Part shown: positions 6,590-56,813 of the stretch, piece after piece
How positions within the stretch are numbered: position 1 is the stretch's first letter
Layout: every line of letters starts with the position of its first letter
Source: an uncultured Lentisphaerales bacterium
GTDB taxonomy: Bacteria > Verrucomicrobiota > Lentisphaeria > JABSQK01 > UBA12247
Length of the DNA: 64,000 bases
NCBI GenBank assembly: GCA_943788985.1
Contig: CALSSJ010000026.1
Coordinates: 87,744-151,743 of the forward strand
Direction: 5' to 3'
The notes under the pieces: model-generated
Database searches by the model: none
What the model was told of the DNA's origin: nothing
Seen by the model: only the letters and a program-made list of their open reading frames with translations
Program-made: the position numbers and the translations under genes

Positions 6590-6996
6590 CAGAGGCCGAA
6601 TTCCTCGTCCAGGCTCAGACTTGAATCCTCAGGCCGTGTTGTGTCGATCTCCCTGGCGCGGGCATCAGTTTTCTTATTCTTCTTCTGTTCCGCCTGCTCT
6701 TCGGCCTCGGCCTTCTTCTTCTCCTCACGTGCTGTACGGTTCTTCTCTGCCTCCGCACGACGCTCCGCCAGCTGCAAGGCTCGGGCATCCTCCTCTGCCG
6801 CCTGGCGCTCGGCATCCATGGCGCCGCGCACATCCCAGGTGCCATAGCTTGTCACCTTCATGAAGTAGGGTATGGAGGTAACCCCAAGCACGGCAACATG
6901 CAGCACCAGCGCTATCACGAGCGTCGTGACAAACGGCCGCCCCTTGGCCACTGCACCCACCAGCTTATTTGCTTCATCCTGTGTATGATCTTTCAT
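6589..6996 (-). CDS. Single-TM protein with charged Ala/Glu/Lys-rich stalk (TolA/TonB-anchor-like)
   Basis: TM segment 'TLVIALVLHVAVLG' followed by a low-complexity charged helix; translationally coupled within the ExbBD operon. Confidence 0.65.
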   Translation of the reverse strand: MKDHTQDEANKLVGAVAKGRPFVTTLVIALVLHVAVLGVTSIPYFMKVTSYGTWDVRGAMDAERQAAEEDARALQLAERRAEAEKNRTAREEKKKAEAEEQAEQKKNKKTDARAREIDTTRPEDSSLSLDEEFGL

Positions 6997-7391
6997 TATT
7001 CCTGCTCTCCTATCCAGGCCAATTGCGCCGCTGTCGCACTCAATGCCGAGAGCAAGGGCGAGAACTGTTCATGCCGCATGTTTTCGTCTATCTTCAACAT
7101 TACCAAATTCTCCGCTCGTGCTTCCAACTCCCCGCTCACCAGCGCCTCCACATCGCCCAGCGCACAGGGCCTGCCCTGCACCCAGACCACGCCCTCTCCA
7201 TCCATGCTCACAGTTACCTGGCCATCGTGGATCTTGGCGATGTCCTGAGATTTTGGGAGCGTTACGTCCACGTGCGCCTCCTTGATGAACACCGAGGTGA
7301 CCATGAAAAAGATGATCAGCAGAAAGGCGATATCGCCCATCGGAGCAAACGGGACGTGCGGTTTCACGCGAGACCGGTGTTTCAGCTTCAT
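6996..7391 (-). CDS. ExbD/TolR family biopolymer transport protein
   Basis: 'PMGDIAFLLIIFFMVTS' signature. Confidence 0.9.
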   Translation of the reverse strand: MKLKHRSRVKPHVPFAPMGDIAFLLIIFFMVTSVFIKEAHVDVTLPKSQDIAKIHDGQVTVSMDGEGVVWVQGRPCALGDVEALVSGELEARAENLVMLKIDENMRHEQFSPLLSALSATAAQLAWIGEQE

Positions 7392-7801
7392 TGACTTTCT
7401 TCCTCAAATATGGCGAGGATACCGCCAGCGTCCGCCACTGCCGCAACCACCTGGTAATAGCGGCCACAGCGCACGCCCGGCGAACTTTCAATCCAGACCA
7501 AGCGCTCCTCATCGGGACGGTCCGCCAGCTGCGCGTCGCTCAGATACTCGCGCAGCGACTGCAGCCCCGCGAGTTCATCCTCACCATTCAGCATAATGCG
7601 CTCGGGCGTCAGATGAATCGTCAACACCTCATTCTGGACGTTCTCCGGATCCTTGCTCGCGGACGGAAGCTCCAGCTTCTGCCCGCTGTTTCTCACGAAA
7701 GTCGACGTCAGAATGAAGAAGATGATCAGCAGAAAGGCGACGTCCGCAAATGCCACCAGATCGGCAGCGGCCTCCACACGTTTCCGCCGGGAGAGTTTCA
7801 T
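7388..7801 (-). CDS. ExbD/TolR family biopolymer transport protein
   Basis: 'AFADVAFLLIIFFILTS' signature. Confidence 0.88.
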   Translation of the reverse strand: MKLSRRKRVEAAADLVAFADVAFLLIIFFILTSTFVRNSGQKLELPSASKDPENVQNEVLTIHLTPERIMLNGEDELAGLQSLREYLSDAQLADRPDEERLVWIESSPGVRCGRYYQVVAAVADAGGILAIFEEESQ

Positions 7802-8436
7802 GCGGCATGCTCGAAATCAATCACATTCAAAATCGTATTGGCGGCTTCCTCCACGTCCAGGGACACCCGTTCTACGCGCCGGGAGAAGACGTTGTGAAAG
7901 ATCACAGCCGGGATTGCCACGATTAATCCTGCGGCCGTCGTCACCAGAGCCATGGAGATGCCAGAAGCCACGGCTCCACCATCGAGTCCGCCCACAGCGG
8001 CCATGCTGTCGAATGAGGTAATCATGCCGACCACAGTACCGGTCATACCGACCAGCGGGGCCACGCTGCCGACCATGGCCAAGTAGTTCAGACGCTTCTC
8101 CAGCATCTCCAGCACGCGCGGCGCATAGTCGATCATCGCTCGGCTCACCAGCTCCGAAACCTGCCCGGTCTTCCCCGCCTCGGTCAGTTTCTGATAGTGC
8201 GACACGCCTACCAGCGCGACAGCTGCCGCCGGACCGCCCGTCTCCCGGCAGACCGCCACAGCCCGCTCGCAGGCTCCGTCTGACAGCGCATCACGGAGGC
8301 CCGCACAGAGCCCTTCGACATCAGCCTCGGCAGCGCGAAACGCCCGCAATCTATCCAGAATCACCCCTACCGCGAGGACGGATAGTCCCAACAACACAGT
8401 CATCATCATCCCACCATCCAACAGATACTGCAGCAT
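7798..8436 (-). CDS. MotA/TolQ/ExbB proton channel family protein
   Basis: 'APLVGMTGTVVGMITSF', 'GISMALVTTAAGLIVAIPA'. Confidence 0.93.
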   Translation of the reverse strand: MLQYLLDGGMMMTVLLGLSVLAVGVILDRLRAFRAAEADVEGLCAGLRDALSDGACERAVAVCRETGGPAAAVALVGVSHYQKLTEAGKTGQVSELVSRAMIDYAPRVLEMLEKRLNYLAMVGSVAPLVGMTGTVVGMITSFDSMAAVGGLDGGAVASGISMALVTTAAGLIVAIPAVIFHNVFSRRVERVSLDVEEAANTILNVIDFEHAA

Positions 8437-40093: not shown

Positions 40094-40918
40094 TCAGTTC
40101 AGCCCCTGACAATCCCACATCGTGCCATCCGATCGACTCTCAGTCCAAGGACGTACGCCGAGATAGGAGTCACCAAAGTTAAACTTCTCTGCGTGGCCAT
40201 CGCCGAACAGCCCCTGCTGGAACAGCCAGCCATGCACCCAGAAGTCGAACGACAGCCCCAGGTCGTTGATCTTCTGGACCGTAACGGCAGAATTCGAGGG
40301 CGCCCCGCAGTTGTTCCATGGACTGGCAACGTCGCTCATGACGATTCGCGCAGCAGGATCAACCACCTGCTCCAACTTCAGCGAGAACTCATCACCGGGG
40401 GCGACCAAGCCGACTCCGCTGCCGCCATCCGACACCCCCGTCATGTAGCGGCTTGCAAGGTCCGTGGGATCGCCGTGATTGAGAGCATAGGATCGCCTGG
40501 TTCGCGTGCCCACTGTCGCTCCCGGCAAACGATCGTCCAGCGGACAATGGTAGACCGGAAAGGCGAAGGCGGGGGCATCGGTGGCGGCTGGCGTTGAGCC
40601 CCCCGGATTCACGCCTTCGACCTGCCAGGTCTCGAGCGCCCGGCCATCGAACCCGTTGAGCAAGTCATCCCACGTGACCGAATACGTCCCTCCGTCTCCG
40701 TTGTTCGTTGGATAATGTCCTTCGTACTCGTCTGCATACATCATGATTGCCGCCCCAATCTGCTTGATGTTATTCAGGCAGACCGCCGTGCGGGAAGTCT
40801 CTCTTGCCTTGGCCAACGACGGCAGCAGCAGCGAAGCCAAGATCGCGATGATCGCAATCACCACAAGCAGCTCAATCAACGTGAAAGTCATCTGTCGTTC
40901 GGGGGGGCCCTGCTTCAC
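40094..40918 (-). CDS. Prepilin-type N-terminal cleavage/methylation and H-X9-DG domain protein
   Basis: GAAGGAG RBS plus GTG 40918; '[40 protein letters not shown]', '[14 protein letters not shown]'. Confidence 0.92.
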
Positions 40919-41133
40919 GGTTTCTCCTTCAGAGTGAAACGACGGCACATACAGCCTGGATCGTTCGCCTTGCTCTGCGCAAGGAACGGGACTCAGTGAG
41001 CTTATGAGGCATTTTGGATGCTCCGGTGTGCTACTGGGCGCGAGTCGACACTGGTCCATCGGCGAGGTGTCGCCAGTGCAGTGGAGCGCCGAAAGGCCCT
41101 AGCATTGTTGCCACGAACTTGCGACACACCACA

Positions 41134-42651
41134 CTAGCGTACTCGGATTAGAAGCCCACTGGTGACGACCGTAATATTGACGAATGTGCCCCCAATGTGA
41201 TCACCAGTAAAATTCGCGCCGGGACTGGTTGCGTCGTAGTCGATCCGCCAGGCATTGGGGCCAACGTCAAAGGTGTCGCCGTCGAGAAGTGGATCACCGC
41301 CGACCGTGAAGCTCCCGTTGTTCCACGTACCGTTGTAATCGATCAGGGTGTAGGTAGTTCCGCGAGCCAGGGCCACGGGACTACTGGCAAGGTCGGAGAC
41401 AGCGAGGGTGACAGTTCCGCTAAGGCTCAGTGCACCTACACCGCCCGTGAGCCCACTGTTGATGACAAGAAGGTCGGCGGCCGTTGCCGCCGCTGCGCTG
41501 GAGTCGAGCTCAACGGCCAGGGTCGAGCCGTCGCTGAAAGTCGCATCCGCGACAGCTAACGATTCGATGCTGGCTCCCGGCGCGAGAGTACCGCCCGATT
41601 GTACGCTTACCGCGCCCGCTATCGAGCCGCTTCCGCCGAGAACGCCGCCATTCACCGTATACGCGGTACCACCGGTGTAGGCTCCGTTGACGAGCAACGT
41701 CCCGTCGTTGACTGTCGTCGTACCCGTGTAGGTATTGGCGCCGCCGGACAGAATCCATTTTCCAGCGTCATTCTTGACCAGACTGTTAAGGCCCGTTGCG
41801 TTGTGGTCGCGCAGATCGCCGTTGATTTCGTTGTCATTCGTGTTTGTGCCTGCAAGGGTAAAGATACGGGCCACAGCTGGGTCAGGATCGGTCGCAAGTG
41901 AGCCGTTGAAGATCACCCTGGCGGCGCCCGTCAGGCTACTCGTAAAGGTACCATCTCCTGTCTTGGTCGGGCCGCCACCGCCTACTTTCTCGCTGCCGTT
42001 CTTGAACGGGCGACCGACTGTAATGTCGGAACTGCCGACAAACTCAAGGGTGCAATCAGAGCTGTCGCCCCAGACATCGGCAATCACGTCGCCCAATGCG
42101 CCACCAGTCGTAATCTGCACGGTCCCATCCCCACCGGTCAGGCTCGAAAAATCGTTTGCGGCATTGGTCAGCCTCAGCGTGCCAGTACCGATCTTATTCA
42201 CGTTCGCAAAGGTCGTGTCAGTAATCACCCCGTTAATGATCAAGAGTTGATTATCCGACACACTGAAATTCGAAAAGCTATTCACCATGTTGATCGCGAG
42301 GTCAATGACGTGCGTACGCGTCAGGCTGGCGTTCACAGCCACGGCTACTGCACCAGCCAGGTCAATGGCGTTTCCACTCAGCGTAAAGTCCACTGCTCCG
42401 GGGCGAAATTCAATCCTGTTAAAGGACGTACCAGCAGGAAAGTCGTTGACTGGGGTCGTCCGCGTGCCGCCATTGAAATAGAGGCCGTCGCCAGCGGTGG
42501 GAGTCCCAATATCCCAGTTTGCTGCGGTCGTCCAGTTGTTGTCGGAGCCACCTCCGGTCCAAAAGTGGGTATCCGCTAGCGCCAGGTGCGTCGCGAGAAC
42601 TAGGAAGGCCAGACCCGCGGGGGTGGTCAAGAGACTGGTGGGGTTCGTCAT
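41134..42651 (-). CDS. Autotransporter-associated beta-strand repeat protein (no beta-barrel)
   Basis: Signal peptide, 'WTGGGSDNNWTTAANW', 'LVKNDAGKWILSGGANTYTGTTTVNDGTLLVNG', 'GGTLAPG'; C-terminus 'VTSGLLIRVR'. Confidence 0.9.
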   Translation of the reverse strand: MTNPTSLLTTPAGLAFLVLATHLALADTHFWTGGGSDNNWTTAANWDIGTPTAGDGLYFNGGTRTTPVNDFPAGTSFNRIEFRPGAVDFTLSGNAIDLAGAVAVAVNASLTRTHVIDLAINMVNSFSNFSVSDNQLLIINGVITDTTFANVNKIGTGTLRLTNAANDFSSLTGGDGTVQITTGGALGDVIADVWGDSSDCTLEFVGSSDITVGRPFKNGSEKVGGGGPTKTGDGTFTSSLTGAARVIFNGSLATDPDPAVARIFTLAGTNTNDNEINGDLRDHNATGLNSLVKNDAGKWILSGGANTYTGTTTVNDGTLLVNGAYTGGTAYTVNGGVLGGSGSIAGAVSVQSGGTLAPGASIESLAVADATFSDGSTLAVELDSSAAAATAADLLVINSGLTGGVGALSLSGTVTLAVSDLASSPVALARGTTYTLIDYNGTWNNGSFTVGGDPLLDGDTFDVGPNAWRIDYDATSPGANFTGDHIGGTFVNITVVTSGLLIRVR

Positions 42652-43883: not shown

Positions 43884-45894
43884 TTACTCATACTCGAAGA
43901 CCACGCCTTGGTGCATGGAAAACGGCGGCAAGGTAACCAGTACCGTGCTGTTTTCACGGGTAAGCGGCAGAGACGTGTCTCCCGGGATCAGCCGGGCCGC
44001 AACGATGGCCTCGTCCACGTCGAGCCGCACGGTTACGTCGTGCAGGATGGGAAGATCCTCGATCAACTGCTGATGCCCGGCGGTACCACGCGGGAGAGGC
44101 GGGGCGTACAGCACGTGGGCCACGAACCGCCTCTGGTGCTCCTGCTTGAGCAGGTAGGCCCGCCCGCAGGAGGGCAGGCGGACGTCGAGATAGGTGCGCC
44201 GGCGTAATGCTCGCAAATGATGCAAAACAAGCTCGCGGTGCAGTGCCATAGCATGCTCGCTGTAGCTTTGGCCCAGAGTGTGAGCAAAGTAGACCACACG
44301 GCCCTTGCGCAGAATGGCCGGGGCACCGGAGGCCTCGACCTGAAACGGGGTATTCCGGTGGGAGCAGAAATGGCCAAAGGTGCGGTCAAAGTATGGATCG
44401 TGGATATCGGCAAGGACTTCCGCGTCCTCGGTCGGGCGCACACGCATGCCGGCGTGGTAGTTGAGCAGCGGCGTGGAGACCATCTCGGAGCCCCAGCACT
44501 CGCGGACCCGGGTGTAGTCTACATCGTGTGGCGCAAAGCGTACGAACTCCGCACCGATGTCGATCAGCAGTCGGTCTTCACTGCGATGCAAGGCACTTTC
44601 GCCCAATACCAGGAGCCCACCGCCGCCTGCGACATAGTCGCGCAAGCGTGCGGCGTCTTCGTCATCCAGGCAGCGCGTCCCGCTGAGAATGATCACATCA
44701 TAGTCTGCGAGTGTGTCTGTGGCGGTGACAGCGTCAAAGCCAATCTGCCCTTCCAACAGCATATCGACCACGCCGGACTGGTTGGCCTCGGTGTCCTGAA
44801 CCACCCAGACCCCAGTGGTGGCATGATGTTGGCTGGGCAGGCAATAATCTTCGATAGCAGCAGCATAGCCAAAGGCATCGCCCAAGCGCTCGTAGGTCCC
44901 CACGTCCATTTCACCCTGGGGATGCAGTTGGTCGCCCATGGCTGCGCAGACCCCGTTGCAGAGCATATGAGCAACTTCATAGCGCAGTGCATTGGGATGC
45001 TTAAACCCGCCAAACTCCCCCCAAAGGGTGTTGAATTTTCCACTTTGGGCAATGACCTGTCGGCCCTGCTTCTTAAAGAATCGCGCTCGTAGCGGCAGCT
45101 TGTTGTAGCCGCCCCAGGCATTCGCCAGATCTTCGAGTTCGGCATGGGTATTGAACCGGTAGGTGCCTTCGTCGTAGAGGTATTTGTCTTTGCCGTTCCA
45201 GTAAAGCGTCGCATCGGGACTGGCGGCCTTCGCCAGCTCGCAGCAAGCTTCTTTGAGCGAAGACCACTTGCGCATGTTGTAGCCGTAGACCGCGTGCTCG
45301 TCGTCGATATCGACTCCTTCCTGCGTCATGCCCGCCAGGCAATTCGGGCAGTAGCAATGCTCGACCAGATTGTTGATGTCGTAAAACAGCCCATCGATTG
45401 GGTACTTAGTGCACAACTCGCGGGTCAGTTCGATGATGTGCTCCCGGTACTTGCCGCTCGGGCAAAGGTGGTACCAGCAGCAGGGGGGAATTACCCTCGT
45501 CTGCGGGTCGCCCCTCAATGGGCTTGGTTGACAAGCGCTCTCCGTTCCGATTGCGACAGACCGAGTCCGGATACCAGTGGGCATCGTTGACCGACCAACC
45601 AACCGTGATGTAAAGTGGGCACTCGACTCCAATCTCATGCGCCGCCTCCAGTTGCGCGCCCATCAGGTCAAAGTCCAGGGTCGGGTGTACTCGCCCAACG
45701 GTTGTGGGGTAGTAACACCAGCTGTGATGGCACTTGGCAAACACCGTAATCGAGGTCAAGTTGCCCTGCTTTACAGCTGCTTGAAACGCTTGCTTATTAA
45801 AGCGACTACCGACGTCGGGAAGGTGCTCAGATGTGTGGAAATCAAGATGAACCTGGCGAGTTGGCAGCGGCTTTTCGGTCGTGTAGAAGGTCAT
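43884..45894 (-). CDS. GHL6 / alpha-fucosidase-like glycoside hydrolase with beta-galactosidase trimerisation-like domain; frameshift near 45485
   Basis: 'RQVHLDFHTSE', 'ITVFAKCHHSWCYYPT', 'YPIDGLFYDI', 'GDQLHPQG'; the frame changes at the G run 45483-45488. Confidence 0.8.
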
Positions 45895-46583
45895 CGAAAG
45901 CCTCTAAGTTGGAAAAAGAAAATCATCGGAAAGCGGCCGCATCCGCAAGCCACGACACTGCCCGGGCGGGACGACACAGGCAGTCAACGCAGGACCCACA
46001 ATGCGCGCCAATCCCGGGCGTTATCGTGCATCGTACTCCGCAATCGTCAACCAGCGCACGATTTGCTTCAGGCGTGAACTGGACAATATAACGGCGCCGC
46101 TTACTCGTGCAAGCAAGCAGTGCCCTGGCAAGAACCGTTCTGACTGTAGCCGTAGCGCTAACCGCGTGTACCTCTCTCACGCGCACGCACCCGCTTCGTG
46201 AGCGAACGCCACACGCCCCAAGCCCAACTACATCGAGAACTGAGACGTGAACTACACCGCAACCAGTCCAGTCAACAATCATATCGTTGCCTTCCTAGTG
46301 GCTACATGTCACGCATTTCGATGTGGTTCACGCCTCAGGTCACGATGTGGTTTCTGCGGACGGGGTAGTTCCCCTGTCAAGAGTTCAGGCGTTCAACTCA
46401 AATACCCCCTCACTGCGTAACGCGGTGAGTTCTGATGCCCCGTCCCAGGTGCCGTCCAATTCTCACGGGCGAGATTGCCTGATCGAGCATGCGCACTAGT
46501 GTCCTGTCCGTCACTTATGATGGGACGTCTCATCGGGCATCATCTCATAGAATTACGCATTGAACCAAGACTCAGGATACGGT

Positions 46584-48413
46584 ATGGAATACCACGTCGC
46601 CCAATCCGGACATGACCAGAATCCCGGCACCGAGGAAGCGCCGTTGCGCACCATTCAGGCCGCTGCACATGCTGCGCATCCCGGAGATATAGTCACCGTT
46701 CATCAGGGCATCTATCGCGAACGGGTCGATCCGCCCCGTGGCGGTCTGTCAGACGATCAACGGATCGTGTACCGGGCTGCACCGGGCGAAGACGTCGCGA
46801 TTAAGGGCTCTGAGGTCGTTACCGGATGGAAACAGGTCGATGGCAACGTCTGGATGGTCTCCTTTCCCAACACGCACTTCGGGGCCTTCAACCCGTTTGC
46901 CAACCTGATCACTGGCGACTGGTTCTTCCCCCAGGGAAGGGCGCACCATACCGGTGCCGTTTTCATCAACGACGTCGCGCTCAATGAGCTGGCGACCCTG
47001 GACAGCCTATTTCAAGGGGCGGCCCGCGGTTGGTTTGCGAAGAGCACCACGCTTGAGACCAAGATCTGGGCCAGTTTCGGAGATGCTGACCCAAATCAGG
47101 AGTTGGTCGAGATCAACCAGCGCCGCACCGTGTTCTACCCCTCCCGCCCCGGCATCAACTACCTCACCGTCCGAGGATTCACCCTGAGTCAGGCGGCGAC
47201 GCCGTGGTCACCGCCCACCACGGAGCAAATCGGCTTAATCGGCGTGAATTGGAGTAAGGGGTGGATCATTGAAGAAAACACCATCACCCACTCGCGCTGC
47301 ACAGGCCTGACGCTCGGCAAGTATTTCGATCGCGAAGACGGGCTGATCGAGTATGGCTACAATGCCCACTATCAGAGCGTCGAGCGTGTCATCGCCCGCG
47401 GCGAGTGGACCCGGGAGCAGATCGGACACCACATCATTCGCAACAACCACATCGCCTATTGCGAGCAAGCTGGCATCGTGGGCAGTCATGGCGCGGTTTT
47501 CTGTACCATCACCGGTAACGTCATCCACGACATCCATGTCCGGCAACTCTTTGGCGGCTTCGAGCAGGCGGGAATCAAACTGCACGCACCGGTCGACACC
47601 GTGATCAGCAACAACCTGATCTACAACTGCAACATGGCGGTCTGGCTCGATTGGATGACGCAGGGCGCCCGGGTCAGCAGTAACCTCATGTATGGCAACA
47701 AAAACTGGGATCTCTTTGTCGAAATCAGCCATGGCCCGTACCTGATCGATAACAACTGGCTGATGTCCGACGTGTCACTCCTGGATTCCGCCCAAGGGGG
47801 CGCCTACGCCCACAACGTGTTTGGCGGCCTGATCCGCCAGCGCCCCCGAACGCGAGCGAAGCACCCAGTACTTCAAGCCCCACACGCTTGAGTTGGACGG
47901 TGAGGGCAAAGTGCTCGACGGAGACGAGCGGTTCTACAACAACATCGTCATGCATGAAAGCGGCATGCAAAGCTACAATACCAACGAGGAACCCCTCTGG
48001 ATCGACGGCAAACGTCTTTCTCTACCGGGGCTCGGCCCAGCACGCTCGAGACCACCCCCCTCTGCGACACAGAAGCAGAGACGCGCTTTCAGATCACCAA
48101 CAACGGCACAGACGTGACCCTGAATCTTCCGCTCAAACGCGCCTGGCAACAACGCCGCTGCAAACTGATAACGACGGAGGTGCTCGGCAAGACGCAGCTC
48201 GTCGGTCAGGGCTTTGACAACCCAGATGGCAGCGACATCAGGCTTGATACGGACTACTTTGGCGAACCACGCAACCCCGAGAGCCCCTTTCCCGGTCCCT
48301 GCGAACTTTCCTGCGACATCGACTGCATCAAGCTTTGGCCGCCAAGCGACACTGTACGAAGCGTCAAGGCCGCTGCGCAAGAGACAGAAGAGCTTGAGAT
48401 CGAACCGCGGTGA
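46584..48413 (+). CDS. GH120-like (beta-xylosidase-type) right-handed beta-helix protein; frameshifts in the 3' part
   Basis: 'YHVAQSGHDQNPGT..APLRTIQAAA', 'FNPF..I.GDWF', 'ATPWSPPTTEQIGLIG.NWSKGWIIEEN', 'GIKLHAP', 'FVEISHGP'; the C-terminal 'FDNPDGSDIRLDTDYFG' is in another frame. Confidence 0.8.
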
Positions 48414-48792
48414 CGCGATGCCGATATGGCGCTCACTGAAAGTTTTGTGGCGGGCACAGGTGGACTTTCCGAAATTCACGAGCTCCGTATCACTCACTTG
48501 GGCATCGAGATCGCCGATGCACCACACCCGCCGACGGCAGATACCATCCCAGCATACGGGTCCGTACGGAGCAGTTCGGCTGATCTAGGGCTCTTGATAG
48601 ACCGCTCTCCCAAGTCGTCCTGCATGCTCCATGCACAGTTGAACTGAACAGAGGCTGTCGTGCAGATTTCGGTGATTGACGGGCGCATATTGGACATAAT
48701 GTGCAACCAGAATCGCCGGCAAAATGCGCAATTTGAGACGGTTTTCGCAGCCGGCGCGGCTAAGGTCCGACAGACTGCTAGTGGTGGCACTA

Positions 48793-50718
48793 CTAGCGGC
48801 CTGTCATCTGTGAGGGCGGACAGAGGAGTACGGAGTACTCGCAGAGGCTGGGCGAGTTCTCGATACGCAGCAAGAGTGTATTGAAGCCCTGCGCGAACTG
48901 GACCAGGCGAAATCCCTCGCCGAGGTGCCAGCCGCTGAGACCATGATCTTCCCAGACGAGTTTGTCGTTGAGCCAGAGCCGGGCAGCATCGTCCGTGCCG
49001 ACGGCGATGTACATGTCCATGGCAGTCTCGCAGTGGACCTCGGTGAACGCGTAGTAGGTGGCGTGATTGACTTCCTGCGGTGGGGTGATCCGCATGATGT
49101 CGCTCTGAATGAACTGCCAGCGTAGCGGATACCGCTCACCGCTGGCCCGATTCTTGACCTTGCCATCAACGTACTCGCGGTCGAGATCGACGTGGATTTC
49201 GGGTGGGTGCTTGTGGGTATAGTCGAGTTTGCCATGGTTTTCCCATGGGCCAATGACATACCAGGTGTCAATGAACAGCCAACCACGACGTTGGCTCTGT
49301 TGGTGAAAGCGCCGGCCAGGCAGAGCTCTGGCCTTGATGTCCTCCAGTGGCACACGCAGGCGCAGACCATTGCTCCGGGTACGAGCCTGAATGCGTGAGT
49401 TCTGGAACCCCGTGGCGGTGCCGCTGTCGCTGGCGCTGTACTTGCTGCGCCCACTGCCTTGCTTGCCGCCCTTGGGCGGCTGGGTGCGAAAGGCATCTGC
49501 CGTGTTGGCCGCTGAGCGCGGCGACGCTTGAAGGACCATGCTACGCGCGGCCATCCAGCGCGCAGTGACCAGCTGGCCAAGCGCGCCAAGGCCTTGCCGA
49601 TAGCGATTCAGCTCGCCTACGGTTGTATGGGGCGATGCGCCGTCGGCGGAACGCTGGTCGTTCTCGCTCTGGGTATTGCCCGGAGAAGGCAGGGTGTTCG
49701 GCGTGGGCGGCGGATTCTGGCCAGCGGCTGCCTGAGCTTCATTGACGCCAGCGAGCGCGTCTTGAAACGACCGCTGCTCGATACGGGCAATTTGAGCGGC
49801 CCGCAACTGGTTGAAGTCGTCGGTGATTTGAGCGTCCAGAGCCGCGGCTCGATCGGCCATCTCTGCGAGTGACAGTGCATTCATGGGATCGGCCGGGGGC
49901 AGACTGCTGGGGCTGTGCTCAGGAATCTCATTGAAGGGGTCCAGATCCGCGGTATCGAAGCTATACGCGAGAAGTTTGCTCTGGAACTGCTCGAGCTTGT
50001 GCAGCACACCTGAGGCATCGTGGATCAGGAGTCCAAATCGTGTGGCCGCTTGTTCTGTGCCATGCGCCTCCCGAAATTCAGCTGCCTGTGCCAGAGCTGG
50101 CTGCAAGAGGGCGAACAGGCCTACAGTCTGTTGTTGCAGAGCCGCGTGGCCCACTGCGGTCGGCGCTGTCACAAAGTCGATGGTTTGCGCTTTCAAGGCT
50201 TGGCAGCGACCGAAGGCCGCCCCGCCAACAGGCTGGCGCGTGCGATTACGCAGCGCCACGGCGTTGACCATGATGGCATCCACGAGGGTCAGAAGATCGC
50301 TCGCCACGGGCTTATTCAGGTCGGCCAGCGAGCGGTCCTTCAGCGTCTCCAGGGCGCGTAGCTTCTCTCCGGCCACGTGTTGCTGCATCTCGCGCATCTC
50401 GGTCAGCTTGCGACGAGCCTTCGCCTCCTCCTTCTTGCGCGCCTCGCGCTTGAGCGTCTCAGCATCATCCTTGCGAATGACGGTCTTCTGCCGCCGCTCG
50501 TGCTCTTCTTTCACTCTCCTGCGGTTGCGCGCATCAAGCTGCTCATGGTGCTTCCTGGCCTGCTCCGCATCAAAGGAAATTATGGTTCTGCGGAGCGGCT
50601 CGCAGCACCAGAAGAGCACCACAAGCGCGAGCTGTACGAGCACAGAAATGCACAGAATCCTGCGCAGCGGCGGACGCCCGTGACAACGTACGCGACGGCT
50701 ATCGGTTGTAATGTTCAT
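48793..50718 (-). CDS. Single-TM coiled-coil protein with C-terminal PA14-like/carbohydrate-binding-like domain
   Basis: N-terminal TM, long charged helical region, Pro-rich linker; C-terminal 'DTWYVIGPW...YYAFTEV...GTDDAARLWLND...GFNTLLLRIEN'. Confidence 0.7.
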   Translation of the reverse strand: MNITTDSRRVRCHGRPPLRRILCISVLVQLALVVLFWCCEPLRRTIISFDAEQARKHHEQLDARNRRRVKEEHERRQKTVIRKDDAETLKREARKKEEAKARRKLTEMREMQQHVAGEKLRALETLKDRSLADLNKPVASDLLTLVDAIMVNAVALRNRTRQPVGGAAFGRCQALKAQTIDFVTAPTAVGHAALQQQTVGLFALLQPALAQAAEFREAHGTEQAATRFGLLIHDASGVLHKLEQFQSKLLAYSFDTADLDPFNEIPEHSPSSLPPADPMNALSLAEMADRAAALDAQITDDFNQLRAAQIARIEQRSFQDALAGVNEAQAAAGQNPPPTPNTLPSPGNTQSENDQRSADGASPHTTVGELNRYRQGLGALGQLVTARWMAARSMVLQASPRSAANTADAFRTQPPKGGKQGSGRSKYSASDSGTATGFQNSRIQARTRSNGLRLRVPLEDIKARALPGRRFHQQSQRRGWLFIDTWYVIGPWENHGKLDYTHKHPPEIHVDLDREYVDGKVKNRASGERYPLRWQFIQSDIMRITPPQEVNHATYYAFTEVHCETAMDMYIAVGTDDAARLWLNDKLVWEDHGLSGWHLGEGFRLVQFAQGFNTLLLRIENSPSLCEYSVLLCPPSQMTGR

Positions 50719-51118
50719 CGTAGGTCCGGATTCCGACGTTGCTCAGGGCATTGAACTGGCACAGGTCAAGGATCTCTACGACCTTATGGACAGGCGTCGC
50801 CTGATCGGCGTCCAGGCGAATGACCTGGTCTGGATTGCGAAGCGCAATCTCGCGCAGTTCGGCGTGCAGCTGATTCAAACTCGTCTGCTGCCCATCGCGG
50901 TATACAGCTCCCTCCCGATCAAGGCCAATGACCAGATGCTCGTCTCGAGGCAACTGCTTCTCGGCCGAAACAGACTCAGGCAGCACGATATCAATGTCGC
51001 GCTGCTCTTTACGGGTCATGGTCGAGACCAGGAAGAAGATCAACAGTAAAAAGACACAGTCGATCAGGGGGGACAGTGAGACCTCTGCCCGTTCGTCATC
51101 ATCGCGCGGGATGCCCAT
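50699..51118 (-). CDS. ExbD/TolR family protein
   Basis: 'LSPLIDCVFLLLIFFLVST', 'IRLDADQAT'. Confidence 0.92.
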   Translation of the reverse strand: MGIPRDDDERAEVSLSPLIDCVFLLLIFFLVSTMTRKEQRDIDIVLPESVSAEKQLPRDEHLVIGLDREGAVYRDGQQTSLNQLHAELREIALRNPDQVIRLDADQATPVHKVVEILDLCQFNALSNVGIRTYDEHYNR

Positions 51119-51120
51119 GG

Positions 51121-51591
51121 CTAGCGAGACTCCTGAAGCGCTGGCCGAATCTTGACCGAAACATTACTGAAGCCCTGTAGCTTACAGATGTCGAGCGCGT
51201 CGATCGCCTGCTGGAAGGGGGTCTGGCGATGCGCGTTGATCTGCAGTGGCTGCGCCATGACATCCTGCCCATTGGCTGCGACGGCTTGCTTCAAGTAGGC
51301 TGCGAGGTCGGCCACAGGTTGCCAGACGATGCTGCCGTCCGCGTCGGTTCCCGACTCCGGGGCCAGGACACCGCCGTGTCGATCCAGACCGATGACCATG
51401 GTCACCTCACGGTGTGCTGCTGCAACCGCCGAGGCCGTCTCAGGCATGTTGACCTGGATCTGCTTTTCCTTGCGCTTGATGATGGTGGTCACCAGGAAGA
51501 AGATCAGCAACAGGAAGACGCAGTCGATCAGCGGAGACAGTGGGACCTCAGCCTCGTCCGTCGCGGGAGAATGTCTTCGCCTACGGCGCAC
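51121..51591 (-). CDS. ExbD/TolR family protein
   Basis: 'LSPLIDCVFLLLIFFLVTT'; likely GTG start at 51591. Confidence 0.9.
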   Translation of the reverse strand: MRRRRRHSPATDEAEVPLSPLIDCVFLLLIFFLVTTIIKRKEKQIQVNMPETASAVAAAHREVTMVIGLDRHGGVLAPESGTDADGSIVWQPVADLAAYLKQAVAANGQDVMAQPLQINAHRQTPFQQAIDALDICKLQGFSNVSVKIRPALQESR

Positions 51592-51601
51592 ACGCGACCT
51601 C

Positions 51602-52357
51602 TTACTCGGACTCGGATGCAGGCTCGGGCTCGACCTTCCGTGGCCGGAGCAGCCAGCTATTGACCAAGTACTCCAGTTCCTCTTCGAGAGTCTCAGCCAG
51701 CAGGTTGAGCCGATATTTGAGCGCATGGTAGATGGCCAGCGAGGGGATGGCGATAATGAGGCCCACGGCCGTGGTGATCAGAGCCTTGGAAATGCTGCCT
51801 GCAAGCATGGAAGCACCCCCATCATCACCGTAAATTTCGACCAGCTTGAATGACTCGATCATGCCGATCATGGTGCCGAGAAGTCCGAGCAGCGGCGCCA
51901 GAGCAGCCACCACGGCTAGCGAGAATGCTTTCTGGCTGTGGGTCCGGATCTCGCGGCTGGCGATATCCTGTGCACCGGGAATGAGCAGGCCCGGATCGGC
52001 GTCGCGATGATGCGTCAGGTAGGCGACCATGCGTGCCAGCGTACATGGGGTTTTCTCGCACAGCGCCAGAATGCCATCATAGTCCTGGTTATGCCACAGC
52101 GGTTCGACCTCCTCGGCGAAGCCCCAGGGGGCGAGGTATTTGCGACGCAGCGCCAGCAGGCGTTCCACGGCAAAAGTGATGCCCGCCATTAGCAGGGCAA
52201 TGAGCGCGATGGCAGTGAGACCGCCTTTGCGGAGTTCGGCCAGCCAATCGACCTGAGCCTGGATCAGCTCGGCAGGCGTATCGGCCGCCGCGGCATACCC
52301 GGCCAGCAGGCCAAGAAAAAGTGCAAGACCATGGTAAGATGTCTGCTTCAAGCGCAT
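51602..52357 (-). CDS. MotA/TolQ/ExbB proton channel family protein
   Basis: AGGAGG RBS; 'APLLGLLGTMIGMIESF', 'ISKALITTAVGLIIAIP'. Confidence 0.93.
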   Translation of the reverse strand: MRLKQTSYHGLALFLGLLAGYAAAADTPAELIQAQVDWLAELRKGGLTAIALIALLMAGITFAVERLLALRRKYLAPWGFAEEVEPLWHNQDYDGILALCEKTPCTLARMVAYLTHHRDADPGLLIPGAQDIASREIRTHSQKAFSLAVVAALAPLLGLLGTMIGMIESFKLVEIYGDDGGASMLAGSISKALITTAVGLIIAIPSLAIYHALKYRLNLLAETLEEELEYLVNSWLLRPRKVEPEPASESE

Positions 52358-52387
52358 GCGCCTCCTGTGTGTTGAATCCTCCACGCG

Positions 52388-54187
52388 TCAGTCACCGGCA
52401 ACAAAGCGGATGTCATCCAGATAAAAGGTGACTGGCTGCCCCTGGCCGGCCAGCACCCAGGCAAACCCCGATTTGATGCGGCTGAGATCACGGCCATCGA
52501 GCGGCACTCGCAGCCGCTGCCAGTCTGTACGCAGCCGCACAGCCTTGAGTTCTGCCTGCGCCGTGTCTGGATACGGTTTGTCAGGACCAATCATGCCGAC
52601 ATGGAACGAAACCACCTCGCCACCGCGGGCGCCACGTGCATAGAACTCAAGCTCGGTCGCCCCCGTGAAATCAAAGCCCCCGGGCTGGTCCCCCCAGTCA
52701 TTCGGCGGCGATTGCCAGACCACGCCGCCCCAGCCGTCGGCCTTTGCGTAGTCCACCCGGATGCAGTGGGCGCCATCATGAGGCGTCTCTGTGCAGCGAA
52801 CGTCCATCGTGATCGCGGTGGTTTCGCCCATGTAGCCGGAGCACGCATACGCAGATTCATCCGGCCCCTCTGCGTAGATTTGGTAGGGCAAGGGGCCGCT
52901 GGGGGCCGGCACGGGCAGAACTGGGCCGTCTACTTGGAGCGGTAGATTGGCAACCGCCGCGTTTCCCTGACCATCATGCACATAGACAAAGAGCCGATAG
53001 CTGCCGCCGCTTTCCGGCAACCGCACCGTGGCCGTCCTCTCTTCTGTGGCAATGATCGCCTCCGGGTACTCGGGTTGCTCTGCCTGGGCGTCCCCCCCCG
53101 TGGCGTAGAGTCCTGATTCACGGCGCAGCACCCAGCGCAGCTGCAAGGCATCTCCATCCGGGTCTTCAGCCACAACGGTAGCAGTAAATTCCGTTCCAGG
53201 CGGCGCAGACGCCGAACCAGTGAGTGCCAGCTCTGCAATCGTGGGACAGCGATTCTCCGGAGCCGGCCCTCCCCATGCCTGGCGCATCGCCTCCACTGCA
53301 CCCAAGCGGTCACCAAGTTCCTCTCCCTGCCGCAGAAACATCCCAAACCAAGTCGCTGTTGCTTCCTGCTTGGCTCCCCAGACAAAAGCGTAGGAGCCCA
53401 GGCAAATGCCAGGATGAGCGGCAATGCCATCGCGGTAGCCATTGCTGTACCACTCGGCTTTTGCCGTACTGGTCATCTCCAGTGGTGCCCCCCACGCGGT
53501 CTTGCCGGTCTCCCATTGTCCGGGCGGACCAAACTCTGTAACCACATACGGCTTGCTGCCGCCGGCCTCGCGGTAGCGCTGGCCCACCGAGCTAAGGCCG
53601 CCATAGCTATTGATCCCCACGACATCCACGTCGGGACAGAAACGGTGCACATTCGCCACCTTACGGCCGCCTAATTCGGCAATGATCGTGATCGTCGGGT
53701 GGCTCGGATCCAACTCCTTGGCGCGGCGTGCGATGTGATTGACCGCGTACCAGATCGCCGGATTGTTGCCATCCTCCTCCATTTCGTTGCCCACGCCCCA
53801 CATCAGCAGAGCTGGGTGGTTGCGGTAGCGCACGATTGCGGACTCCGCAGCCTTGAGTTGGCGGCTGACTTGCTGGTCATCGGTGTAGTCAAAGCCGTGG
53901 CGCGGGTGGCCCAGCCAGATGCCCACCGTAACCGATAGCCCCAAGGCATGGGCGCGGTCCAACAGCGGCTCCAGGTTGTCCGTTCCCCAGGTGCGAATCG
54001 AATTGCCTCCGCAGGCAGCCAATTCCTCCAGGCGTTCGGAGCCGCCAGCGCCATTGACAACATATGGCTCCCCACCGCGCAACAGGGTGTACTGGCCCCC
54101 ATTCTGGACCAGCCGGACTTCGGTTGCGTGCATCGCAGCACTCATCAAGACGAACAGCAGGATAGATCGGTACAAAGCATGTCTCAC
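52388..54187 (-). CDS. GH2-like TIM-barrel glycoside hydrolase with C-terminal CBM-like domain
   Basis: 'GGNSIRTWG', 'HPALLMWGVGNEME', 'YVVTEFGP', 'KQEATATWFG'; C-terminal 'WGGVVWQSPPNDWG...FYLDDIRF'. GTGA overlap with the LacI stop. Confidence 0.85.
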   Translation of the reverse strand: MRHALYRSILLFVLMSAAMHATEVRLVQNGGQYTLLRGGEPYVVNGAGGSERLEELAACGGNSIRTWGTDNLEPLLDRAHALGLSVTVGIWLGHPRHGFDYTDDQQVSRQLKAAESAIVRYRNHPALLMWGVGNEMEEDGNNPAIWYAVNHIARRAKELDPSHPTITIIAELGGRKVANVHRFCPDVDVVGINSYGGLSSVGQRYREAGGSKPYVVTEFGPPGQWETGKTAWGAPLEMTSTAKAEWYSNGYRDGIAAHPGICLGSYAFVWGAKQEATATWFGMFLRQGEELGDRLGAVEAMRQAWGGPAPENRCPTIAELALTGSASAPPGTEFTATVVAEDPDGDALQLRWVLRRESGLYATGGDAQAEQPEYPEAIIATEERTATVRLPESGGSYRLFVYVHDGQGNAAVANLPLQVDGPVLPVPAPSGPLPYQIYAEGPDESAYACSGYMGETTAITMDVRCTETPHDGAHCIRVDYAKADGWGGVVWQSPPNDWGDQPGGFDFTGATELEFYARGARGGEVVSFHVGMIGPDKPYPDTAQAELKAVRLRTDWQRLRVPLDGRDLSRIKSGFAWVLAGQGQPVTFYLDDIRFVAGD

Positions 54188-55200
54188 AGCATTGGGTTCA
54201 CGGCAGAGGATGGGGGGCAAGAATACGCCCGGACAGAGTGACGGCTGATCAGGCTGGCGGGAAGAACGACCTGCTGAGGCGGCACATCTGGGTTCTCACG
54301 CAAACTCTCGACCAACTGCACCACACGTTCCGCAACCAGATCCGTATTGCCATCGACCGTGGTCATGGGAGGCTGCGTATAGCGACTTACCTCCGGACAC
54401 TCGAAGCCGATCACGGAAAGGTCATCCGGCACGCGACGATTCAGCCGATACAACGCATGCGTGGCAGGAAGCAACAGGTCCTCGCTGCAAATCACCAGTG
54501 CCGTAGGATCCTCCAGCAGCAGGTCAGAAAGCTTCGCCAGCAACGGCGCCAGATCACCGCCGGCAGTCCAGTCTTCCCGGCTGATCACCAGGGCTGGATC
54601 GGGTGCAACGCCCGCGGCTCTCAGGGCCTCGCAGTAGCCCGCGTAGCGTTCTCGGTCCGACCAGCAGTTCTCGTGATACCGTAACAGCCCGATGCGCGTG
54701 TGCCCCTGAGCCAGAAGGTGCTCTACCGCCAATGCAGTTCCCTGTCGATGATTGGCATAAACGCAATGAAAATATTCCGAGTAGTCATTGAGCACAATCA
54801 CCGGCGCATTGCTCAGTTGGTGCAATAGCTTGCGACAATGAGTAGACCAGACCAATGCCAGCACAGCTTCCGTATATTGACGGCTCAAATGTAACATATC
54901 CAATGACTCGATCGGAATCACGTCTGGCCGCAGCCCAGCCGCAGCCAGACGCGTCACCACCGGCCCAATCATCGCGGCGTGGTATTTGCTCATCCTCAGA
55001 TCGGCGAACCCTTCCACCAGCATTGTCACCTGCCCCCGCCGTGCCGACCGATTGGCCGTATAGCCCAACTCCTCTGCCACGCGAAGAACCCGCCGCCTTA
55101 GCGCTGCACTTACATTCGGGTGTTGGTTCAAGACCCGTGACACCGTCGCCAGTGACACCTCCGCCAACTTCGCAATATCACGAACCCCTGCCTTGGCCAT
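54184..55200 (-). CDS. LacI family transcriptional regulator
   Basis: 'VRDIAKLAEVSLATVSRVLN...LGY', 'VPDDLSVIGF', 'PPMTTV'. Confidence 0.95.
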   Translation of the reverse strand: MAKAGVRDIAKLAEVSLATVSRVLNQHPNVSAALRRRVLRVAEELGYTANRSARRGQVTMLVEGFADLRMSKYHAAMIGPVVTRLAAAGLRPDVIPIESLDMLHLSRQYTEAVLALVWSTHCRKLLHQLSNAPVIVLNDYSEYFHCVYANHRQGTALAVEHLLAQGHTRIGLLRYHENCWSDRERYAGYCEALRAAGVAPDPALVISREDWTAGGDLAPLLAKLSDLLLEDPTALVICSEDLLLPATHALYRLNRRVPDDLSVIGFECPEVSRYTQPPMTTVDGNTDLVAERVVQLVESLRENPDVPPQQVVLPASLISRHSVRAYSCPPSSAVNPML

Positions 55201-55669: not shown

Positions 55670-56200
55670 ATGGAGCTGACCTGTACCTACATCCTCGGCG
55701 CCAACGGGCGCTTCGAAAGCGCGACCGGGGCGGGCTACTGAATCTGGAAGTGGGGATCAAGTTCCTGGCCAGTGATCAATTTGATCGCTCGAGTTGGGAC
55801 AAGCAGGCCTACTGGTCGACCTACCCGGAGGGACACATCGGCCGGTTCACAACGGATAAGCCGGAATGGGCGCAGAAGCCCGACGCTACTTGGGCCCAAG
55901 ATATCTGGGAATTCTACTTCCTGGGCTGGGGGTGCCGGGCGGCAAGCTGCTGACCTATGCGGCGTATGCGACGAAGCAGACCATGAGGACCTACACCTTG
56001 GAGGATACCGATGCCAACAAGGCGCCAACCGGCGATGGCGATGGCAGAACCACTACAGCCCGTTTCGGGCAGTTCAGCGACAAGACCTACTACCTCTACC
56101 TCCTCGAAACGCTCGACTACACCTCCTCTGGGGCAACTACAGCTCCGAAATCCGGCCAGCAACTCAGCACCAGCGCGTGGCTGGACTTGGCCTGAATAAG
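55670..56200 (+). pseudogene. Degraded C-terminal fragment of a GH2-like glycosidase
   Basis: 'SWDKQAYWSTYPEGHIGR...WAQDIWEFYFLGWG'; frameshifts; paralogous to 22741-23110. Confidence 0.6.
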
Positions 56201-56211
56201 GGGGATGAATA

Positions 56212-56813
56212 ATGAGACTATGCGCTGTAGACAAGTCGCGCTCCACCCTGATTGAGTTACCGTTGATGATCGTCATCATCACCATCTTAGCATCTCTATT
56301 GCTGCCTTCGCTGGCGAAGGCCCGCGCAGCGGATCGGACGGCTTTTTGCCAGAATAATCTCAAGCAGATTTATCTGGCGCAGGCGCTGTACGCAAGCGAG
56401 AACAATGGAGGGACTGCCCATTCGCAGTCATGGATGTGGATGCTGACACCTGATCTTGGGCTCGACCGTACGAAGGTCTATCCCTGGCGTGATGTCTATG
56501 TCGAGGATCCTGGCAGCAATGTCCTGATCTGACCCAACGTCGAGATTGAACCGACCTACTACCGCGCCACAAACTATCGCGGATCCAAGTGGGCCTTCAC
56601 ACGCCAGCACAAACAGCGGAGCACCACACCGGCGTCTTGCTGGCAAGAGTGTCAAAGCCAACAGAAGCGATGCTTCTTGGCGAGTCGAGCCAAAATGGCT
56701 ACATCGACAACGGCGGTCAGTTGAAACGACTGTTTGTAGAAGGTCATGTCGGCAAGGGCGTTCTAACCAACGACTGGACTACGTCAATTGCCATCGCTGG
56801 TCATGGGCAGTGA
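56212..56813 (+). pseudogene. Degenerate prepilin-type (H-X9-DG family) gene
   Basis: '[44 protein letters not shown]'; TGA replaces the Cys of C-P; the C-terminal 'LFVEGHV' is in another frame. Confidence 0.75.

Follow-up and report, generated by a model that had tools for sequence, protein, structure and literature searches.

What does an ExbB–ExbD motor pull on when the gene in the place of tonB does not encode TonB? This question is raised by a six-gene operon within a 64,000-nucleotide (nt) stretch of DNA from an uncultured Lentisphaerales bacterium (contig CALSSJ010000026.1; the whole stretch is termed here the window), in which exbB and two different exbD genes are followed by a gene for a 641-residue single-pass protein, hereafter the partner. 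Synteny, co-divergence and an anchor motif make it very probable that this partner is the dedicated output of its own motor. The core of the locus comprises the following features, in window coordinates:

51602–52384, minus strand: 260-aa ExbB/TolQ-type subunit of the motor pentamer, extended at its N-terminus by a signal-like stretch (Pfam MotA_ExbB, E=4e-23)
51121–51591, minus strand: ExbD-1, ~156 aa, likely GTG start at 51591 (from the sequence and homologue lengths), pore Asp present (Pfam ExbD, E=9e-21)
50699–51118, minus strand: 139-aa ExbD-2 with 38% identity to ExbD-1 and with the pore Asp (Pfam ExbD, E=9e-32)
48793–50718, minus strand: partner, 641-aa single-pass protein, candidate force transducer (AlphaFold2, family search)
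50605–50667, minus strand: partner membrane helix, residues 18–38, S25-x3-Q29 (hydropathy and AlphaFold2)
49525–50568, minus strand: partner helical stalk, residues 51–398 (DSSP on the AlphaFold2 model)
48811–49356, minus strand: partner head, residues ~455–636, PA14/GH2-N-type β-sandwich with D576-D577 at 48993–48988 and N621 (model and fold search)

A conserved four-gene module

Across related genomes the partner gene accompanies a motor of this kind. A scan of species genomes gave 190 confirmed loci, of which the best 80 were analyzed, with distant members under-sampled. All four core genes were complete in 68 of these 80 loci, and in 67 they followed the order exbB–exbD–exbD′–partner; together with the window's own copy, the complete loci make up the 69 cassettes referred to below. 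Because all four core genes recur in 68 loci, the arrangement is far beyond chance. Eight of the 12 incomplete loci are cut by contig ends, with the cut falling in the partner gene for six and in exbD1 for two, whereas L038 has both exbDs with no detectable exbB, and L007, L009 and L029 have no motor gene in the available DNA. A first-pass annotation of the window had proposed that the partner fills the slot of TonB and had made its conservation next to exbBD a point of decision; on both counts the related loci agree with it.

At E≤1e-3 the partner family counts 1135 relatives among 50%-identity cluster representatives, of which 150 remain at E≤1e-30. By phylum, the 80 loci divide into 42 from Verrucomicrobiota, 27 from Planctomycetota, 4 from Lentisphaerota, 3 from Kiritimatiellota, 1 from Nitrospirota and 3 unassigned, and named carriers include Haloferula luteola (L019), Thalassobacterium maritimum (L034, L072) and three Cerasicoccus species (L047, L057, L067, L078). 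Strong matches to the partner cassette were present in 15 of 250 genomes of the phylum and in 3 of 40 close relatives; the cassette is thus an accessory trait of patchy distribution. Two or more complete cassettes occur in 11 genomes among the loci, with motors mostly 20–62% apart. Head distances follow motor distances with a Spearman coefficient of 0.61, reached by none of 999 permutations, where the head was picked automatically and a frameshifted locus (L021, wrong fragment) stayed in the set. This co-divergence and the divergent copies within single genomes indicate that the four genes duplicate and move as a unit and that the partner travels with its own motor.

Two variations on the partner were also seen. 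Tandem partner paralogues stand after one motor at L038 (8436–12824), and some relatives (L125:8148–10241; P0139, P0143) begin with a cleavable-signal-like peptide rather than an S-x3-H anchor, which suggests soluble periplasmic forms.

Within the window, the six genes of the operon run head to tail on the minus strand from 55200 to 48793 and are as tightly coupled as first described. With the likely starts they are separated by gaps of 2–10 nt or overlap by 20 nt, the latter between exbD2 and the partner gene: lacI stops at 54184 and the hydrolase gene likely starts at 54175, the hydrolase stop at 52388 is followed by the exbB start at 52384, the exbB stop at 51602 by the likely exbD1 start at 51591, and the exbD1 stop at 51121 by the exbD2 start at 51118. 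For the hydrolase and exbD1, the open reading frame (ORF) finder probably places the start too far 5′. Pfam matches above cut-off for LacI, MotA_ExbB and both ExbDs support the initial labels of these four genes, and the operon has neither a TonB C-terminal domain nor a receptor gene, again as initially described.

Motor subunits and the partner anchor

The pore Asp is present in 69 of 69 cassettes for each of the two ExbDs, and in ExbB T171, T204 and T205 are invariant and P214 near-invariant; the equivalence of these Asp and Thr residues to the E. coli numbering was assumed by motif. With its catalytic residues in place, the complex would be expected from its family to act as a 5:2 proton motor. 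The ExbB and ExbD genes fall below every NCBIfam equivalog cut-off, indicating that the motor is neither a classical ExbB nor a TolQ system.

Hydropathy and the AlphaFold2 model agree on a single membrane helix in the partner carrying S25-V-L-V-Q29. The initial reading of this SVLVQL stretch as the SxxxH helix of TonB with Gln in place of His is borne out by the family, as the column of Q29 holds His in 38, Gln in 11 and other residues in 20 of the 69 cassettes, with Ser four residues earlier in 46. The match to the full TonB motif S-x3-H-x6-L-x3-S is partial: the partner has S25, Q29, F36 and E40 at the respective positions, and the last Ser occurs in 1 of 69 cassettes. In the first membrane helix of ExbB we took one column, by its position, to be that of Ser34. 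It holds Ser beside all 38 His-type partners and a residue other than Ser beside 30 of the 31 others; in the window, partner Gln29 is paired with ExbB Leu65, where the His-type relatives have Ser. For TonB, contacts of Ser16 and His20 with ExbB Ser34 and Trp38 are described (PMC12215075), and the His–Ser pattern is consistent with such a contact, but does not count as independent evidence of it. A complex prediction with three ExbB, both ExbDs and partner residues 11–85 scored 0.00 in two runs whose controls did not fold, and gives no evidence either way.

Directly after the membrane helix, residues 44–50 (window ~50569–50589) form an extended segment, T-I-I-S-F-D, which often reads x-M-x-F-D in relatives. 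This segment is located where, on our assumption, the ExbD-binding box of TonB lies, and we take it as a candidate motor box.

Stalk and head of the partner

No match to the partner was found in Pfam (E≤0.1) or NCBIfam, and we therefore relied on an AlphaFold2 model built from 90 sequences (mean predicted local distance difference test (pLDDT) 86.5, predicted template-modelling score (pTM) 0.79). The model shows outgoing helices (51–127), a four-helix bundle (131–251), returning helices (284–398) and a disordered linker (412–451) leading into the β-structured head. Rather than a proline-rich linker, residues 51–398 are mostly helical with pLDDT >90, and the long helical stalk first noted from the sequence is thus recovered by hydropathy and by the model. 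The high pTM and the helix lengths suggest that the stalk may form a hairpin with the head nearer the membrane. Mutual information between stalk and head is at noise level (z≤4.7), and weak pairs (76 with 367, 368, 370 and 374, 81–370 and 41–394) hint at an antiparallel hairpin. The proposal of a glycan-binding arm accordingly survives in part: a β-sandwich does follow a helical stalk, but the hairpin may put it near the membrane and not at the end of an arm.

The stalk is modular, and in the hairpin reading its far tip would be the variable part. The bundle region is the least conserved part of the partner in the conservation profile; it is missing from relatives of 434–449 aa (P0128, P0146) that keep helix, hairpin and head, and holds a LamG/concanavalin-like domain in 7 of the 52 long or atypical relatives scanned. 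A wide fold search with the whole protein returned just generic four-helix bundles, over residues 130–258, and in the Atlas no match to the stalk reached 0.9, with unnamed clusters alone found by features.

The head, folded alone, is an all-β sandwich with a pLDDT of 91. In the fold search, galactose-binding-like N-terminal domains of glycoside hydrolase (GH) family 2 scored Z 10.5 (root-mean-square deviation (rmsd) 3.0, 126 residues aligned), and PA14 lectins Z 9.3 (6M8M; rmsd 3.1, 129 aligned), 9.2 (6QE7) and 8.7 (5A3L and 6X95), while sequence searches of the PDB with the head gave no meaningful match. Within the family, 21 of 52 members match PF07691 (PA14) at E≤1, the best at 5e-4. A triad is near-invariant in the head (D576 in 155/157, D577 in 154/157, N621 in 152/156), against a mean top-residue frequency of ~0.6 for the head as a whole. 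Its Asp-Asp pair falls on that of the PA14 alignment (hhalign E=1.7e-5, 28 columns), and the latter pair on the TDDG of RsgI3-PA14 (6QE7). In PA14 lectins a DcisD-N calcium site contacts sugar hydroxyls (PMC6852018). The DD...N triad of the head resembles that lectin site and is a candidate DcisD-N site. The structural search of the domain and the lectin-type triad thus support the suggestion of a PA14-like C-terminal domain in the broader sense of a PA14/galactose-binding-like fold on the model. Distant versions of the head are appended to GH29 (fucosidase), GH2, GH42-like and DUF2961 proteins in 4 of 9 cases scanned. Given this fold, the conserved triad and the heads on glycosidases, binding of calcium and sugar by the head is likely, as judged from sequence and model. 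In the Atlas, the closest structural matches to residues 455–641 (window 48793–49356; template-modelling score 0.87–0.90) are Bacteroidota proteins of 458–515 aa auto-named 'OmpH family'.

A GH158-type hydrolase and the cassette neighbours

In the window, two further genes precede the core:

54184–55200, minus strand: LacI-family regulator, 338 aa, a variable neighbour outside the core (Pfam LacI and Peripla_BP_3 above cut-off)
52388–54175, minus strand: GH158 enzyme of the β-1,3-glucanase family, signal peptide predicted, carbohydrate-binding-module (CBM)-like module at the C-terminus (likely TTG start at 54175; ORF finder 54220)

The hydrolase had been labelled GH2, which our comparisons do not bear out. 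A phmmer search of the PDB matched the GH158 entries 9ORO (E=7e-99, residues 27–431) and 6PAL (E=9e-60), with GH2 entries at E≥6e-7, and the catalytic pair Glu143 and Glu229 reported for this β-1,3-glucan-specific family (PMC13195107) lines up with E146 and E229 (counted from the 54220 start). GH2 identity was rejected, as Pfam gives just a 118-residue Glyco_hydro_2_C match and the NCBIfam GH2 models reach 24–35 bits against cut-offs of 544–950. At its N-terminus the enzyme has a stretch resembling a signal peptide, and its C-terminal module is weakly CBM-like (Pfam CBM_11, E=0.019; PDB 1WMX and 2C24, E=0.03).

The module in the window is probably co-transcribed with this secreted GH158 enzyme under the LacI regulator, and the presence of both suggests that the inducing substrate is probably a β-1,3-glucan such as laminarin. 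Co-regulation of the motor with a glycosidase, as first proposed, may thus apply here, but GH158 genes occur at 2 of the 80 related loci and lie outside the conserved module. Our promoter scan of the operon gave 0 sigma-70-like sites where 2.2 are expected, and no terminator-like site was found directly 3′ of the partner gene. Four RNA-labelled runs from one marine study were rejected as a measure of transcription or co-transcription, since they cover genes and intergenic DNA evenly between 44001 and 59000, as contigs; this study may also be the one from which the window derives.

LacI-type genes occur at 22 of the 80 loci. The other neighbours of the cassettes include GH1, 5, 10, 29, 30, 31, 42, 65 and 66 enzymes, pectate-lyase-like proteins, sulfatases and DUF1559 proteins. 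None of 45 upstream neighbours matched a tetratricopeptide repeat (TPR) at E≤1e-6, and in the window that slot is occupied by the GH158 gene; tolB and pal were absent from the Pfam-scanned neighbours (45 upstream, 53 downstream, 43 and 46 others). An OprB carbohydrate porin divergent from one cassette (L006:5273–6448) and a TonB-dependent receptor downstream of another (L034:12441–14618) were the sole outer-membrane transporters seen directly beside cassettes.

TonB and receptors in the loci and the genome

The partner itself gave no Pfam match to the TonB C-terminal domain (PF03544) at E≤0.1, its head being a jelly-roll, and neither a TonB C-terminal nor a receptor domain was found among the Pfam-scanned neighbours of the cassettes. 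BLASTP with the receptors and TonB of this genome, of limited sensitivity with six ORFs as receptor queries (one from the wrong strand, one a fragment), found one receptor in the 80 loci (L034, opposite strand) and no TonB. A linked TonB–receptor pair, which the first-pass annotation had named as the observation that would speak against it, is hence not seen in relatives. This genome has one classical TonB, beside its own exbD (exbD–tonB locus G000:C26:73167–74292). In a survey of 50 of 55 intended carrier genomes, 7 had no plug match, these assemblies being incomplete. It is possible that the partner acts on an unlinked receptor in trans.

The genome has 12 exbD matches at eight loci, but a single TonB_C match. 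The exbD loci include G000 C2:97910–101812, C11:199923–202016, C16:11994–14028, C26:72553–75353, C33:38146–44001 and C41:11362–15004; several adjoin large TPR-like proteins as judged by eye, and one has three exbDs.

Proposed mechanism and alternatives

Our preferred reading, held to be about as likely as not, is that the module is a self-contained, mobile four-gene unit for glycan foraging in bacteria of the Planctomycetes–Verrucomicrobia–Chlamydiae (PVC) group, with a calcium-lectin head. In such a unit the ExbB pentamer and the ExbD1/ExbD2 pair would run on proton flow, and the partner membrane helix would dock outside ExbB helix 1 as TonB and TolA do, as motif and synteny suggest. The rigid helical hairpin would hold the PA14-type head, with its putative calcium-dependent sugar binding, in the periplasm. 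Motor cycles would then pull the cargo of the head, most likely a glycan chain or a glycan-loaded binding partner coming through an unlinked outer-membrane channel, which is the weakest step. Besides synteny, co-divergence, the anchor motif and the fold of the head with its triad, this reading is favoured by the distant heads on glycosidases, by LacI-type genes, found no farther than 1.5 kb away on 13 of 113 cassette flanks as compared to 0.5% of random positions in this genome, by the glycoside hydrolases, lyase-like proteins and sulfatases that recur near the cassettes, and by a patchy distribution that suits an accessory trait. A fuller version, which we hold to be unlikely, is a SusC/SusD-independent polysaccharide importer of PVC bacteria, where the motor would cycle the calcium-lectin head to reel pore-threaded glycan into the periplasm, applying force to the cargo and not to a receptor plug, and where the glycan range would be tuned by cassette paralogues, by adjacent hydrolases and by swappable stalk tips, whether a helix bundle, a LamG domain or no tip at all.

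Several observations weigh against glycan foraging by a motor-driven lectin. The main difficulty is the periplasmic head without a linked outer-membrane pore: external glycan is out of reach without a pore, so that the cargo or glycan-loaded binding partner must arrive by an unlinked route. No conserved fifth gene was found in the 80 loci, whether for a pore, a lipoprotein or a fixed enzyme. At the anchor, the window partner itself lacks the His, the column taken as that of ExbB Trp38 holds Trp in 0 of 69 cassettes, and the His/Ser covariation was rejected as proof of contact, with 3 changes on the motor tree, 2 independent pairs and p=1. The best matches of the head are GH2 N-domains, within about 1 Z of the PA14 lectins, its PA14 score of 15.1 bits lies below the Pfam cut-off of 24, and two of the nine proteins scanned with a distant head are HEAT-repeat proteins. 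Many immediate neighbours of the cassettes are housekeeping or unannotated genes, and the control for the enrichment of LacI-type genes is rough, as it uses one background genome and loci that are related to one another and also supplied the profile. Finally, receptors are at hand elsewhere, with 3 receptor barrel and 4 plug matches, as against one TonB_C match, in this genome and plug domains in 43 of the 50 carrier genomes.

These receptors, present but unlinked, favour the strongest of the alternatives, a dedicated transducer whose head binds a protein such as the plug of an unlinked outer-membrane transporter, a porin or a lipoprotein, and which would substitute for TonB in trans with its lectin-like site being structural or protein-binding. 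The conservation of the head, far above the consistency of the neighbouring enzymes, likewise fits a fixed target rather than many glycans. The partner has, however, no TonB-box-binding fold, its DD...N triad is near-invariant, and a receptor was found at just one of the 80 loci and no plug in the 7 incomplete carrier assemblies, and we regard this explanation as doubtful, if a serious competitor.

With less favour we view a role on the cell's own envelope, where the head would hold on to a glycan of the envelope, such as peptidoglycan or periplasmic glucan, and serve in tethering, in remodelling or in motility on surfaces, and GH158 and LacI would be incidental. This would account for a periplasmic head, for the rarity of GH158 (2 of 80 loci) and the freely variable flanking genes, and other 5:2 motors have envelope and motility roles (PMC12204202). 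The patchy occurrence among phylum genomes and close relatives, often in several divergent copies, is unlike core envelope machinery, and sugar regulators are enriched beside the cassette, making this role quite improbable. A sensor or scaffold, in which binding of glycan and calcium would prompt the partner to gate the motor or to hold periplasmic enzymes, would fit the hairpin model with the head near the membrane (a weak point), the PA14 domains of membrane-anchored polysaccharide sensors in clostridial RsgI (PMC6852018) and the ~45% of cassettes (31/69) without the His that TonB and TolA need, but is very improbable, as the 17-residue cytoplasmic tail of the partner has no signalling domain and the cassette has no other transducer gene to carry the motor output.

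Other features of the window

A second motor cassette lies on the minus strand at window 4958–8436, where exbB–exbD–exbD is followed by a 135-aa and then a 543-aa polytopic protein. The 135-aa protein has an A-L-V-L-H membrane helix and a charged helical tail with no head, and weakly matches the first 110 positions of the partner profile (E=5e-6). The 543-aa protein has a second H-containing helix, no NCBIfam match and a C-terminal domain that, to our eye, looks like DUF4159.

Near the operon, the glycan-degradation region holds sulfatase genes (Pfam), a DUF1559 pilin-like gene and a passenger-repeat protein ending in L-L-I-R-V-R (window 40094–42651 and 55735–56532), with a second pilin-like start at 56212; we presume that the tail resembles a PVC sorting signal. 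The DUF1559 pilin-like and sulfatase genes, together with the relatives of the window cassette on the motor tree, point to a PVC-group host, probably from Lentisphaeria or Verrucomicrobiota. A GH120-like and a GHL6 gene are in pieces (window 46560–48790 and 43884–45894). Contigs from public runs lack single bases at 47843, 48010, 48027, 48443, 48523, 48527, 48742 and 48764 (two to four runs each) and, in one low-depth contig, at 45494, and for this reason the breaks in both genes are probably assembly errors.

Comparison with known systems

The module apparently represents an undescribed, real and widespread variant of a recently proposed transducer class. No title or abstract describing the partner family was found, in a search whose coverage excludes subscription journals and bioRxiv supplements. 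The initial idea of a possibly undescribed uptake system fits the family in that it is apparently undescribed, with uptake as a putative role, but a non-TonB transducer after exbB–exbD–exbD in PVC bacteria is already in print with von Willebrand factor A (vWA) heads (PMC12204202). Verrucomicrobiota, Lentisphaeria and planctomycetes are major marine and gut polysaccharide degraders, and few studies address their uptake machinery: for aquatic Akkermansiaceae, substrate acquisition is called largely understudied (PMC13174399), and the main text of a 2026 review of bacterial glycoside transporters does not contain 'Verrucomicro', 'Planctomyc' or 'Akkermansia'. The module offers a concrete, testable uptake candidate: mutations could target the ExbD Asp, the partner His/Gln and D576/D577, and GH158 hints at a β-1,3-glucan as substrate.

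The Akkermansia mucin-utilisation locus MUL1 reportedly includes ExbB/ExbD together with TPR and vWA proteins. It is a verrucomicrobial glycan-uptake locus and is termed Sus-like (PMC13174399). MUL1 is described there as not syntenic in aquatic Akkermansiaceae, whereas the cassette is present in Haloferula and other Akkermansiaceae records, and the partner proteins differ.

With TonB–ExbB–ExbD (PMC12215075) the module shares a homologous motor with essential Asp and Thr residues, an S-x3-H-type anchor and a putative link to nutrient acquisition. It differs in having two different ExbDs, no Trp at the column equivalent to ExbB Trp38, and a partner without PF03544, proline-rich linker or linked receptor; the family includes natural motor–partner pairs without the His that is held to be essential in TonB and TolA. 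TolQ–TolR–TolA is likewise homologous in its motor, and gammaproteobacterial TolA has a helical periplasmic stalk (PMC12204202), but the module gave no match to the TolA C-terminal domain in Pfam or NCBIfam, lacks tolB and pal in the scanned neighbours, and is accessory and multi-copy. The head resembles PA14 lectin modules (MpPA14 6X95, Cea1 5A3L, RsgI-PA14 6QE7, RTX adhesin 6M8M; Z 8.7–9.3, rmsd 3.0–3.3, 118–130 residues aligned) down to a DD on the same hairpin, whereas it is 8–10% identical to them, below the Pfam cut-off, and carried by a motor partner and not by an adhesin or anti-sigma factor.

The closest known system is that of the vWA-headed transducers of function unknown that Williams-Jones et al. 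(2025, PMC12204202) proposed for PVC bacteria, encoded after a TPR gene, tolQ and a heterologous pair of tolR genes. As described there, they also have a single membrane helix with a Ser/His motif and a non-TonB globular head, and follow one exbB-like and two heterologous exbD-like genes. The partner differs in its head, a PA14/GH2-N β-sandwich without a vWA Pfam match, and in its spacer, a helical hairpin of 350 residues in place of ~100 proline-rich or disordered ones (PMC12204202); its cassette has no upstream TPR gene (0 of 45 scanned), and the His is replaced in 31 of 69 cassettes. Neither the text of that paper contains 'PA14' nor its supplement 'PA14' or 'lectin', and with the partner this class of transducers would gain a second type of head.

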